The notes beneath the pieces are model-generated. The model was not told the DNA's origin. It saw only the letters and a program-made list of their open reading frames with translations, and did not search any database. The position numbers and the translations under genes were made by a program. From the sequence record NC_018855.1: a DNA stretch of 64,000 bases. One strand, 5' to 3'. Numbering within the stretch: position 1 is the first letter of the stretch; the number at the start of each line of letters is the position of its first letter. Below, one piece after another: positions 44,716 to 47,688 of the stretch. Origin of the DNA: Escherichia phage HX01.

Positions 44716-45174
44716 ATGACTATCAATTCAGACGTTTTTATCCGCCGTAATAAACTCCGTCGAATCTTTGAAACGGAGTTCCGCAAAATAAATGCCAGTA
44801 TAAAAGATGCTGCAAAGTCTCTTGGACTACCAGGCTTTCATATCAAGTATTCTCAACATCTCTTAGATCGTGCCATCCAGAGAGAAATAGATGAGAACTA
44901 CGTTTTTGAATTATTTCGTAAAGTAAAAAATCATGTTAAAGAAGTTGCAGAATTTTTATCAATGCCGGCACGTCCAGATGTTGATGAAGATTTTGTCGAA
45001 GGTGTTGAATATCGCCCAGGCCGTTTAGAAATAACTGACGGAAATCTTTGGTTAGGACTTACAGTTTGTCGCGAAAATCCTGCATTCAAAATGAAGACTC
45101 TTCAATGCAGAATGGCTATTATTAACAGTAAACGACTACCAGGAAAAGCTTCTAAAGCAGTGATTAAAATCTAG
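44716..45174 (+). CDS. regB: Endoribonuclease RegB
   Basis: MTINSDVFIRRNKLRR...HLLDRAIQREIDE... matches T4 RegB by recall. Confidence 0.9.
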   Translation: MTINSDVFIRRNKLRRIFETEFRKINASIKDAAKSLGLPGFHIKYSQHLLDRAIQREIDENYVFELFRKVKNHVKEVAEFLSMPARPDVDEDFVEGVEYRPGRLEITDGNLWLGLTVCRENPAFKMKTLQCRMAIINSKRLPGKASKAVIKI

Positions 45175-45182
45175 AGGTAAAC

Positions 45183-45725
45183 ATGAGAAAAGCACTACTC
45201 GCTGGTCTATTTGCTCTTTCATTATCAGCACATAGCTCCGAGCATACTTTTAGTAATGTCCAACTCGATAACTTGAATTATGCTTATCAGTTTGGGGAAC
45301 AGTTTTCTAAGGACGGAAAATTTAAAACGCATGAAAATATGCATAAGAAAGGACTTGGATACATAATGGCCGCAATACTATGGCAGGAATCATCTGCCGG
45401 TATTAATCTTAAAGATAAGAAAGGTCACCATGCGTATGGAATGTTCCAAAACTATCTACCAACAATGAGGGCAAGAGTTAACCAGCTTGGTTATAATATG
45501 ACTGATGCCCAAATTAAGAAAATGCTATCTAAGCGGTCTAATTCAGCAAGATGGGCTTATATCGAATTTTCTTATTGGTTAAATATACATAACGGGGATA
45601 TAAGGAAAGCCTTATCCTCATATAATGCGGGATGGAAGACAAGTGCTGGAAGTAAATATGCTTCTGAAGTCCTAGAAAAGGCCAATTACCTTAAATCAAA
45701 TAAACTACTGGAAATAAAAGAATGA
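45183..45725 (+). CDS. Secreted lytic-transglycosylase-like (SLT domain) protein
   Basis: Signal peptide MRKALLAGLFALSLSAHS; motifs WQESS, YGMFQ, SYNAGW typical of SLT domains. Confidence 0.6.
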   Translation: MRKALLAGLFALSLSAHSSEHTFSNVQLDNLNYAYQFGEQFSKDGKFKTHENMHKKGLGYIMAAILWQESSAGINLKDKKGHHAYGMFQNYLPTMRARVNQLGYNMTDAQIKKMLSKRSNSARWAYIEFSYWLNIHNGDIRKALSSYNAGWKTSAGSKYASEVLEKANYLKSNKLLEIKE

Positions 45726-46069
45726 CCAAAATGTTGGCTTTAATAGTTGGCTTGGTTTCATTTAACGCTCTTGCTAATACTACATATACTGATGTAACGG
45801 AGTATACAAACAGAACGGCGTCTGATTATTGTGGTAAAAGTCAAGAGTGTAAAGTAGATTTTTCACAAAAATTGTTATATGCGTATAAAGACGGAGAAAA
45901 AGATGGGGCGTCTAGTAGGTTCAAGGCGTCTACCTTAATTAAAAGATACTATAAAAAATGGCAAATATTAGAATGCTCGGTGGCGGAACCTAAAGATAAG
46001 GCAGCATGCAATTCTATGGTGGACCGTCTAGTTGACTCTTATAATAGAGGACTTGCAGCAAGTGATTAA
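45722..46069 (+). CDS. Secreted Cys-containing hypothetical protein
   Basis: 115 aa with N-terminal signal peptide and four Cys. Confidence 0.5.
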   Translation: MTKMLALIVGLVSFNALANTTYTDVTEYTNRTASDYCGKSQECKVDFSQKLLYAYKDGEKDGASSRFKASTLIKRYYKKWQILECSVAEPKDKAACNSMVDRLVDSYNRGLAASD

Positions 46070-46529
46070 AAACTATATCAAGGGCGATATTGTCGCCCTG
46101 TTTTCTAAAGGTAATAATATTGCTCATGGGTGCAATTGTTTTCATACAATGGGCGCCGGTGTAGCAGGTCAATTAGCAAAGGCTTATCCAAAAATTTTAG
46201 AAGCCGATAAACTTCAAACCGAATTCGGAGACGAGTCTAAACTTGGGACTTATTCGGTTTATGAAAAATATTTTAAGACCCATAAAGCTTATTGCTTTAA
46301 TCTTTATACACAGTTTGAGCCGGGACCTAATTTTGAGTACTCTGCTTTAATGAATTGTATAATAGAATTAAATGAATTCGGAAAAAATAAGATAACAAAG
46401 CCTGTAATTTATATGCCAAGAATTGGTGCGGGTATTGGTGGCGGAAACTGGGATGTCATCGAAGAGATTTTAGATACGTATTCCACTAAACTAGAAATTG
46501 TGATTGTTGATTGGGAACCATTATTATGA
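46032..46529 (+). CDS. Macrodomain (ADP-ribose-binding/hydrolase) protein
   Basis: GDIVALFSKGNNIAHGCNCFHTMGAGVAGQLA and PRIGAGIGGG resemble macrodomain signature loops; start ambiguous (TTG 46032 or GTG 46062). Confidence 0.65.
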   Translation: MTLIIEDLQQVIKNYIKGDIVALFSKGNNIAHGCNCFHTMGAGVAGQLAKAYPKILEADKLQTEFGDESKLGTYSVYEKYFKTHKAYCFNLYTQFEPGPNFEYSALMNCIIELNEFGKNKITKPVIYMPRIGAGIGGGNWDVIEEILDTYSTKLEIVIVDWEPLL

Positions 46530-46738
46530 ATATACATTATCCACATCCATATGACCCAAAGAATAAGGCAGTAATTATTCGTCAATGGGAACGCATTTGT
46601 CGTACCAAATGTCCAATTAATAGTCCACATGATGTAGATAAAGACTACATCGGAACATTCGTTGAATATACCTTTATTGATAAGAAAGGCCGTAAACAAC
46701 ATGTAGAAGAATATTGCTTAAAGGTGACATGGTTATGA
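46526..46738 (+). CDS. Hypothetical protein
   Basis: 70 aa, ATGA overlap with macrodomain gene stop. Confidence 0.45.
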   Translation: MNIHYPHPYDPKNKAVIIRQWERICRTKCPINSPHDVDKDYIGTFVEYTFIDKKGRKQHVEEYCLKVTWL

Positions 46739-46920
46739 GTTTAAGTAAAGAACAAAAAGACAGACTCTTTTCTCTTATCCACGAAGTTATGGATAAAAAT
46801 AGCGAATTGGAAAAAGTTTGTAATGAATGCGGTCCTTTTAGCGCAAACGAGTACGAAGAACTTTCTAAAGAATTCGATAATAAAGAACAAGAACTCATTG
46901 ATTATATAAATTCCTTATGA
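46735..46920 (+). CDS. Small helical protein, MxxxEQK paralogue A
   Basis: 61 aa MSLSKEQKDRLFSL... Confidence 0.45.
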   Translation: MSLSKEQKDRLFSLIHEVMDKNSELEKVCNECGPFSANEYEELSKEFDNKEQELIDYINSL

Positions 46921-47114
46921 TTACTCGCGAACAAAAGAACGAAATATTATTTTTAGTTGGTGAAATTATTAGTTTAGAAAAGGATTTGTCTTTTGAATTA
47001 TCTTCTGATTATGGAGATGCCGAAACATATTACGAATTAGTAAAATCTATCGATAAAGCTGAAAATGATTTGGAAACATATTTAGAAAATTTAACTAAGG
47101 ACTCTTATGGCTAG
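46917..47114 (+). CDS. Small helical protein, paralogue B
   Basis: 65 aa MITREQKNEILFLV...; tandem to paralogue A. Confidence 0.45.
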   Translation: MITREQKNEILFLVGEIISLEKDLSFELSSDYGDAETYYELVKSIDKAENDLETYLENLTKDSYG

Positions 47115-47688
47115 TTTAATTTTTACATATGCCGCTATGAACGCTGGTAAGTCTGCTTCATTACTTACTGCCGCACATAACTATAAAGAACGTGGCATGG
47201 GTGTATTAGTTCTTAAACCGGATATTGATACTCGCGATTCAAAAGGTGAAATAGTCTCTCGTATTGGTATTCGTCAGGACGCCAATATAATTACAAAAGA
47301 CATGGATATCTTTGAATTCTATAAATGGGCTGCAGCACAAAAGGATATTCATTGTGTATTTGTTGACGAAGCTCAGTTCTTAACTACTGAAAAGGTGTAT
47401 CAACTTAGTCGTATTGTTGACGTATACAATGTGCCGGTAATGGCATATGGACTACGAACAGATTTTAAAGGTAATCTATTTGAAGGTTCTCAAGCATTAA
47501 TGGCTATTGCCGATAAGCTTGTTGAACTTAAAGGTGTCTGTCATTGCGGTAAAAAAGCCACAATGGTAGCTAGAGTCACGGAAGATGGACTTCCAATTAC
47601 AGATGGCAGTCAAATTGAAATTGGTGATACCGATAGATATGTGTCATTATGCCGGAAGCATTGGAATGATTTGACAGGGTTGTTATAA
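47107..47688 (+). CDS. tk: Thymidine kinase
   Basis: MASLIFTYAAMNAGKSASLL... 193 aa, matches T4 Tk by recall. Confidence 0.92.
   Translation: MASLIFTYAAMNAGKSASLLTAAHNYKERGMGVLVLKPDIDTRDSKGEIVSRIGIRQDANIITKDMDIFEFYKWAAAQKDIHCVFVDEAQFLTTEKVYQLSRIVDVYNVPVMAYGLRTDFKGNLFEGSQALMAIADKLVELKGVCHCGKKATMVARVTEDGLPITDGSQIEIGDTDRYVSLCRKHWNDLTGLL

Follow-up and report, generated by a model that had tools for sequence, protein, structure and literature searches.

The macrodomain protein of Escherichia phage HX01, ortholog of Tk.4/AdfM of phage T4, as a probable anti-DarTG2 factor

What does a small stand-alone macrodomain protein do for a T4-like phage? The question is raised by a forward-strand gene of Escherichia phage HX01 that lies between vs and a tk.3-like gene in a stretch of 64,000 nt from record NC_018855.1 (referred to as the window; position 1 is its first nucleotide). 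The phage is a Mosigvirus, i.e. a member of a genus of T4-like phages within the Tevenvirinae, and its closest relative, phage moskry, is 98% identical. The explanation that we favour, with a probability of roughly 0.7, is that the macrodomain protein neutralises DarTG2, a toxin-antitoxin defence of the host, probably by a SCO6735-like hydrolysis of thymidine-ADP-ribose. The gene is real and had already been annotated, and the role has already been reported for its T4 ortholog, tk.4 (adfM), so that both are already known; the residue pattern of the active site is the point that we add.

The macrodomain had been proposed in an initial annotation made from the sequence, on the basis of two loop signatures, GDIVALFSKGNNIAHGCNCFHTMGAGVAGQLA and PRIGAGIGGG. 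Both were found in the translation of the open reading frame (ORF), and the assignment was upheld by sequence profiles, structure prediction, and fold searches. The protein matches the Pfam family Macro (PF01661) with 28.1 bits at a gathering threshold of 22 (E=2.2e-6), covering 116 of the 118 profile positions, and PHROG 335, which carries the label “phosphatase”, with E=8e-67; such matches far exceed what chance would give. Sequence searches of the PDB with phmmer and with a profile retrieved BT1257, TARG1, SCO6735, Poa1p, and DarG with E values from 6e-18 to 2e-11. The AlphaFold2 model, generated from 89 homologs, has a predicted local distance difference test score of 96.1 and a predicted template modelling score of 0.91 and exhibits the three-layer alpha/beta/alpha macro fold; Foldseek matched it to human TARG1/OARD1 (E 2e-10) and to yeast Poa1p (E 1e-9). 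Both Gly-rich loops for the binding of ADP-ribose and diphosphate are present (T-M-G-A-G and P-R-I-G-A-G-I-G-G-G), and the protein can be assigned to the ALC1-like/TARG1-like macrodomains.

The closest protein with a reported phenotype is Tk.4 of phage T4 (NP_049723), which is identical to the HX01 protein at 131 of 155 positions in a gap-free alignment (85%, E=7e-105). The flanking by vs and tk.3 has the same order in the window, moskry, T6, and T4. By position as well as by sequence, the HX01 gene is thus regarded as the ortholog of T4 tk.4/adfM. In both phages the start of the gene overlaps the end of vs, and both proteins have H-x-C-N and N-L-Y-T-Q motifs as well as Gly loops of the same type. 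The differences comprise the start codon, which is ATG in T4 and GTG in the window, and 24 substitutions, e.g. GIGGGNW in the window versus GIGKGNW in T4. The ratios of nonsynonymous to synonymous divergence (dN/dS) are 0.07, 0.08, and 0.04 versus T4, T6, and moskry, respectively, showing strong purifying selection. The T4 record describes the protein as “phosphatase; Tk.4; contains A1pp phosphatase motif”, and GenBank entries of close relatives of the window use “macro domain protein”.

The function of tk.4 was addressed by others in a HIDEN-SEQ preprint of November 2025. When a T4 transposon library was applied to a DarTG2-expressing host, tk.4 was the single significant hit (bioRxiv 10.1101/2025.11.20.689424). 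T4 with a clean tk.4 knockout proved sensitive to DarTG2, and the new gene name adfM stands for anti-DarT factor Macrodomain; an enzymatic removal of ADP-ribose from DNA was deduced by the authors from structural similarity, without an assay (bioRxiv 10.1101/2025.11.20.689424). In addition, T2 and T4 remain DarTG2-resistant without adfN/adfA (PMC11825919), which fits an anti-DarTG2 role of tk.4. The initial annotation had offered several roles for the protein. The sensitivity of the T4 knockout supports one of these, namely a counter-defence enzyme that reverses defensive ADP-ribosylation, whereas neither the degradation of ADP-ribose-derived signals nor the regulation of the phage's own ADP-ribosyltransferases gained support. 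The tk.4 phenotype, which is purely genetic and was obtained with the T4 allele only, and the biochemistry of SCO6735 come from other groups; the fold, the orthology with tk.4, the purifying selection, and the Asn/Gln pattern described below were computed in this analysis. We infer a T4-like phenotype for the HX01 allele, with a hydrolysis resembling that of SCO6735 as its mode of action.

For the analysis of the active site, the family profile was aligned with verified PDB sequences. The DarG bait from Mycobacterium tuberculosis had the same sequence as chain 5m3i (100% identity), and the numbering of the 5e3b sequence agreed with that published for SCO6735 (V25, N27, K34, Q85, G87, and K89; PMC9411070). 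In hhalign and MAFFT alignments, Gln84 of the HX01 protein is found at the position of Lys80 of DarG, Lys84 of TARG1, and Gln85 of SCO6735. Asn25 aligns with Asn22 of DarG and Asn27 of SCO6735, and Gly126 aligns with Asp125 of TARG1. The hhalign alignment of the phage family with 5e3b (E=6e-15) pairs H22/N25 with H24/N27 and N80/Q84 with N81/Q85, and the sole indel around that region is a mobile loop that is five residues longer in SCO6735, appearing as a gap of 5-6 residues in the phage family. The hhalign alignment with BT1257 is equivalent (E=2.4e-16). Some alternative alignments were discarded. The phmmer alignment of the HX01 protein with BT1257 was ungapped around N-x-x-x-Q and misleading, and MAFFT placed BT1257 wrongly at this motif; the profile alignment was used in both cases. 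For gp104 of phage PhiKZ (see below), hhalign against the single sequence misaligned the T-K region, and MAFFT and the numbering of the respective paper were used.

The residues in question are highly conserved. N80, Y82, and Q84 are invariant in the 89 phage and metagenome homologs as well as in 80 homologs from bacterial chromosomes, which had been retrieved with search patterns that did not contain these three residues. Among the 89 homologs, P119, I121, G122, and G124 as well as C26 and G33 are also invariant, and H22 and N25 are conserved to at least 90%. In the 80 bacterial homologs, the conservation of H22, N25, C26, and G33 is 100%. One exception at a neighbouring position was seen in T6 (NC_054907, 2501-2968), the Tk.4 of which has a Lys at Gly31 of the diphosphate-binding loop (TMKAG). 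This position is Gly in 78 of the 80 bacterial homologs and also in an alignment of 16 sequences; the T6 residue might alter the binding of ADP-ribose or reflect an error in sequencing.

The Gln and its Asn partner (Q84 and N25 in the HX01 protein) are shared with two ALC1-like macrodomains of the Gln type, SCO6735 of Streptomyces coelicolor (PDB 5E3B) and BT1257 of Bacteroides (PDB 2AFC/2FG1). In SCO6735, the residue found in place of the Lys is Gln85, which Asn27 keeps in position; the variants Q85A and N27S lose activity, and the mechanism is lysine-independent and water-mediated (PMC9411070). Thymidine-ADP-ribose is cleaved efficiently by this enzyme, which counteracts the toxicity of DarT and, in addition, binds DarT and thereby inhibits it (PMC9411070). 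The similarity has limits, i.e. the identity to SCO6735 and BT1257 is only about 23-32%, these proteins have N-M-I-G-Q where the phage protein has N-L-Y-T-Q, and the extended mobile loop with Lys89 of SCO6735 has no counterpart in the HX01 protein. TARG1/OARD1 is a member of the same ALC1-like class and has a loop of equal length after the Thr-Gln/Lys position, but it uses a Lys84/Asp125 dyad where the HX01 protein has Gln84/Gly126.

For comparison, the relationship to DarG was quantified. The macrodomains of DarG (Thermus aquaticus, 5M31/5M3E; M. tuberculosis, 5M3I) have an essential Lys80 in place of Gln84. The HX01 protein reached 31.9 bits with the DarG model NF048014 of NCBIfam, which has an equivalog cut-off of 250, and 33.2 bits with the DarG model of PADLOC, whereas the macrodomain of M. 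tuberculosis DarG reached 259 and 264 bits with the same two models. It is a single domain of 155 aa and matches only positions 4-146 of the 338 positions of the DarG model. Neither a C-terminal DarT-binding domain nor an adjacent darT was present at the HX01 gene, the neighbours of which are vs and tk.3. Because the scores are 32-33 bits at a cut-off of 250, the T4-type protein is not a DarG equivalog, and every test of DarG membership placed it outside this group.

The name AdfM has also been given to gp104 of PhiKZ, a nucleus-localised anti-DarTG2 protein with in-vitro activity (Cell Rep 2026, PMC13309987). Like the HX01 protein, it is a stand-alone phage macrodomain, directed against DarTG2, and its active-site residue N23 has an equivalent Asn in the HX01 protein. 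In contrast, gp104 is a true DarG2-like protein that keeps Lys78 in the sequence FPTK, where the HX01 protein has Gln, and its scores with the two DarG models, 138 and 133 bits, are fourfold higher; the hhalign E value between gp104 and the T4-type family is 1.8e-9. Judged by these alignments, the T4-type and the PhiKZ-type AdfM represent two macrodomain subfamilies that differ in the residue at the catalytic position. The name was introduced independently twice and hides two distinct protein families. The predicted Gln-type, SCO6735-like site of the T4-type AdfM, as opposed to the Lys-type site of DarG and the PhiKZ AdfM, goes slightly beyond the literature searched.

The following mechanism would be compatible with these results. 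The macrodomain would be made during infection from the gene string between regB and tk. Host DarT2 ADP-ribosylates thymidine in single-stranded phage DNA, which blocks replication. The macrodomain would then bind the DNA-attached ADP-ribose with its two Gly-rich loops and hydrolyse the N-glycosidic link between ribose and thymine, restoring replicable DNA. The role of Gln84, which Asn25 would hold in place, is probably to position the distal ribose, with the chemistry probably being done by a bound water, as has been proposed for SCO6735. Because the family has the invariant Q84 instead of the catalytic Lys known from DarG and TARG1, the chemistry is probably different from that of the DarG type, and the “DarG-like” hydrolysis that has been proposed for the T4-type AdfM would probably follow another mechanism.

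Several points weigh against the favoured explanation. The literature searched contained no biochemical assay for a Tk.4 protein of the T4 type, and the phenotype stems from a preprint and from the T4 allele, to which the HX01 allele is 85% identical. Poa1p, a phosphatase acting on the small molecule ADP-ribose-1''-phosphate, is as close in structure as DarG, and the scores on the DarG models are only about 32 bits. Lastly, the HX01 protein lacks the extended loop of SCO6735, which is five residues longer than in DarG and TARG1 and carries Lys89, a residue that has been proposed to aid in DNA binding.

The protein might protect the phage in a non-catalytic way, as an inhibitor that binds DarT2 or as a shield on ADP-ribosylated DNA. 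We consider this unlikely, although catalytically dead variants of SCO6735 (Q85A), DarG (K80A), and TARG1 (K84A) inhibit DarT in vitro by interaction, with SCO6735 being the strongest (PMC9411070), the canonical catalytic Lys is missing from the HX01 protein, and an enzyme assay of Tk.4 was not found in the literature searched. Q84, N25, and both Gly-rich loops are invariant in phage and bacterial homologs despite the very different DarT proteins of the hosts, and this conservation of ligand-site residues speaks more for a conserved small-ligand active site than for an interface between proteins. Moreover, catalysis by SCO6735 depends on the same Asn/Gln pair (PMC9411070). The legacy labels “phosphatase” and “A1pp motif” point to a small-molecule enzyme similar to Poa1p, i.e. 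an ADP-ribose-1''-phosphate phosphatase or an O-acetyl-ADP-ribose deacetylase, and the His and Asn of H-x-C-N are indeed common to Poa1p and the HX01 protein. Of the residues that are mutated in deposited Poa1p structures, H23 is found opposite H22 and S30 opposite T29 of the HX01 protein, while the third, F152, has no equivalent. However, the names were transferred by homology without tests, Poa1p has a Ser at the position of Gln84 and Phe152 where the HX01 protein has Gly126, its substrate is a small molecule, and a phage pathway that makes ADP-ribose-1''-phosphate is not evident. As such an activity would also leave the DarTG2-specific phenotype of the T4 ortholog unexplained, we regard it as quite improbable.

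T-even phages encode three ADP-ribosyltransferases, and the macrodomain could erase or tune the modifications introduced by phage Alt, ModA, and ModB, including RNAylation. Alt and Mod modify arginine, and this class of macrodomains is not known to cleave that linkage. Neither alt nor mod was seen among the ORFs of the window between 44000 and 49000; both genes are presumably located in other parts of the genome, as on the T4 map. Some protein substrates are also accepted by SCO6735 and TARG1 (PMC9411070), but the phenotype of tk.4 in the screen was DarTG2-specific (bioRxiv 10.1101/2025.11.20.689424), and homologs occur in many phages and bacterial chromosomes without a recurrent neighbour gene, so that we see very little room for this explanation. 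The least probable of the alternatives, in our judgement, is the degradation of immune signals (e.g. gcADPR or His-ADPR of Thoeris) or the reversal of RNA ADP-ribosylation (e.g. by CmdTAC). Macrodomains can process many 1''- and 2''-linked ADP-ribose derivatives (PMC9503650), and SCO6735 and TARG1 also reverse the ADP-ribosylation of uracil in RNA (PMC13036486). Nevertheless, CmdTAC still restricts wild-type T4, which carries tk.4 (PMC11618068), SCO6735 is inactive on RNA that is ADP-ribosylated at the 2'-OH, and a genetic or contextual link to Thoeris is absent. The neutralisation of DarTG2 by hydrolysis therefore remains the explanation that we prefer.

Homologs of the protein are widespread among phages. 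With tblastn they were detected in 2798 of 50,697 phage records, 2435 of them near full length, and the respective phages include T4-like, Felix-O1-like, and rV5-like phages, Pakpunavirus, Ackermannviridae, and others. About 2,800 phage homologs labelled “phosphatase”, “hypothetical protein”, or “O-acetyl-ADP-ribose deacetylase” become readable as probable anti-DarTG2 factors, with consequences for the prediction of phage host range on E. coli, Klebsiella, and other hosts that carry DarTG2.

Relatives with the signature H-x-C-N...N-x-Y-T-Q are also encoded by 384 stretches in species-representative genomes of bacteria, e.g. Ruegeria, Desulfobacter, Verrucomicrobia, Hymenobacter, Planctomycetes, and cyanobacteria. 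They are mostly stand-alone proteins of 150-170 aa, and some of the genes adjoin ileS-lspA. The analyses of bacterial conservation and gene neighbourhoods covered 80 loci. ORF clustering at these loci yielded no recurrent partner gene (a dedicated DarT profile search was not made); the clusters consisted of antisense artefacts and lineage-specific housekeeping genes (ileS, lspA, argC) only. By analogy with SCO6735, the bacterial relatives may provide orphan immunity against DarT-like toxins. The odds are about even, in our view, for a more far-reaching proposal, namely that the AdfM of T4 and Mosigvirus is a lysine-independent Asn/Gln thymine-ADP-ribose glycohydrolase that originated from stand-alone bacterial macrodomains, was recruited separately from the PhiKZ type, and possibly has a wider reach. 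If this were true, the reach could include ADP-ribosylated uracil on RNA, ADP-ribosylated acidic residues on proteins, and the direct inhibition of DarT2, and thousands of phages would contain a broad-spectrum eraser.

The coordinates of the gene and of the features in its vicinity are summarised in Table 1. The location of the gene in the interval between regB and tk, as given in the initial annotation, was corroborated by the two flanking landmarks. The same annotation had the gene begin at 46032 with a non-canonical codon. A non-canonical start was indeed found, but this coordinate is 30 nt too far upstream. The ORF that extends from 46032 to 46529 encodes 165 aa when it is read from the first TTG, and it includes both signature loops; the true start, however, is almost certainly the GTG at 46062. 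This follows from the alignment with T4, the coding sequence (CDS) annotated in moskry, the N-termini of homologs, and the spacing of a Shine-Dalgarno-like motif. The ATG of T4 tk.4 aligns exactly with this GTG, and the preceding T4 codon is an in-frame TAG. In moskry, a CDS of 468 nt is annotated from the equivalent GTG, and the consensus of the 89 homologs has the N-terminus MI..YIKGD. A GAGGA motif precedes the start of T4 tk.4 with identical spacing. An initiation at the TTG at 46032 was thus rejected on account of the N-termini of homologs, the in-frame upstream stop in T4, and the moskry annotation.

Table 1 Features of the macrodomain gene and its surroundings in the window
Feature	Position	Strand	Evidence or remark
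regB endoribonuclease, left landmark	44716..45174	+	Pfam REGB_T4, E=3e-69
vs.1, signal-peptide-like N-terminus	45183..45725	+	PHROG 600, E=2e-67
vs (valyl-tRNA synthetase modifier)	45722..46069	+	PHROG 1256, E=2e-35; annotation in relatives
In-frame upstream extension, TTG at 46032 and 46053	46032..46061	+	Probably untranslated; homologs start at the GTG position
Shine-Dalgarno-like AGAGGA	46046..46051	+	10-11 nt 5' of the GTG, within the 3' end of vs
Macrodomain gene, ortholog of T4 tk.4/adfM	46062..46529	+	GTG start, 155 aa, stop TGA 46527-46529
8-bp GC-rich hairpin AGGGCGAT-ATT-GTCGCCCT, followed by a T-run	46081..46099	+	Terminator scan; 20 nt into the CDS
H22-G-C-N25-C-F-H-T-M-G-A-G33, putative active-site His/Asn and first Gly-rich (diphosphate-binding) loop	46125..46160	+	Homolog conservation, alignment
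N80-L-Y-T-Q84 motif, Q84 at the position of the catalytic Lys of DarG/TARG1	46299..46313	+	hhalign, MAFFT
P119-R-I-G-A-G-I-G-G-G-N-W130, second Gly-rich (phosphate-binding) loop	46416..46451	+	Conservation; TARG1 mapping
tk.3-like gene (DUF7202)	46526..46738	+	Pfam DUF7202, E=2e-38, from residue 6 of the mechanical ORF; moskry annotation
tk (thymidine kinase), right landmark	47107..47688	+	193-aa ORF; thymidine kinase at the matching position in moskry

The gene is part of an overlapping gene string in the window, regB-vs.1-vs-macro-tk.3-tk.2-tk.1-tk. The GTG at 46062 overlaps the 3' end of vs, which has its stop codon TAA at 46067-46069, and the TGA of the macrodomain gene shares nucleotides with the start codon of the tk.3-like gene (ATG at 46526; ATGA). 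A scan for sigma-70 promoters yielded 11 sites compared with 12.8 expected in shuffled sequence, and no promoter is claimed. Two ORFs that overlap the gene on the opposite strand (46014-46172 and 46409-46702) were set aside with no homolog search of their own; they are unannotated in the closest relatives, and the gene on the + strand is under strong purifying selection.

The initial annotation also placed the gene directly after two secreted proteins. The position of vs.1 and vs directly upstream was verified, and secretion is a prediction from classical signal-peptide-like N-terminal segments, MRKALLAGLFALSLSAHS in vs.1 and MTKMLALIVGLVSFNALA in vs. A secretion signal is odd for Vs, which is named valyl-tRNA synthetase modifier. 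The vs.1 protein shows a weak similarity to SLT lytic transglycosylases (Pfam SLT, E=0.0011, under the cut-off), and its ortholog in a Klebsiella phage is annotated as an SLT domain protein. The vs gene was the most depleted gene in minimal medium in the HIDEN-SEQ study (bioRxiv 10.1101/2025.11.20.689424).

The hairpin near the start of the CDS was considered as an attenuator or a conserved RNA element. The same 19 nt are found in T4, T6, and the Yersinia phage PYps32T, despite a gene-wide dS of 1.25 versus T4. However, the hairpin is absent from the orthologs of Kanagawavirus, Karamvirus, and Jiaodavirus, i.e. three other genera of the Tevenvirinae, and it coincides with palindromic codons for G-D-I-V-A. 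It was therefore rejected as a regulatory element and is lineage-specific and probably incidental.

The position of the hairpin is at the same time a mosaic boundary. PYps32T (Tequatrovirus; locus 401-880) is 90-100% identical to T4 throughout vs and as far as nt ~40 of tk.4, while the identity is about 35-70% in the remainder of tk.4 (58% at the amino-acid level) and recovers in tk.3. The divergence of tk.4 in PYps32T looks as if the allele of an anti-defence gene had been exchanged like a cassette. The same gap is seen in the histogram of tblastn identities of the phage homologs, with few records at 60-80%. In the window, the DNA identity to T4 is no more than 60-78% in vs but 93-100% at ~46530-47110, where the 3' end of tk.4 is followed by tk.3-tk.2-tk.1. 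Based on these identity values, the shift between vs and the tk.3 side appears as another mosaic junction near the macrodomain gene.

In a further record, OL964745 (Mutant Escherichia phage T4 clone T4_7t1), two “macro domain-containing” CDSs are annotated at 2494-2948 in place of an intact tk.4. The split is caused by three separate 2-nt deletions at the wild-type positions 12-13, 70-71, and 270-271, and it could reflect sequencing or assembly errors or the decay of a gene that is dispensable on laboratory hosts.

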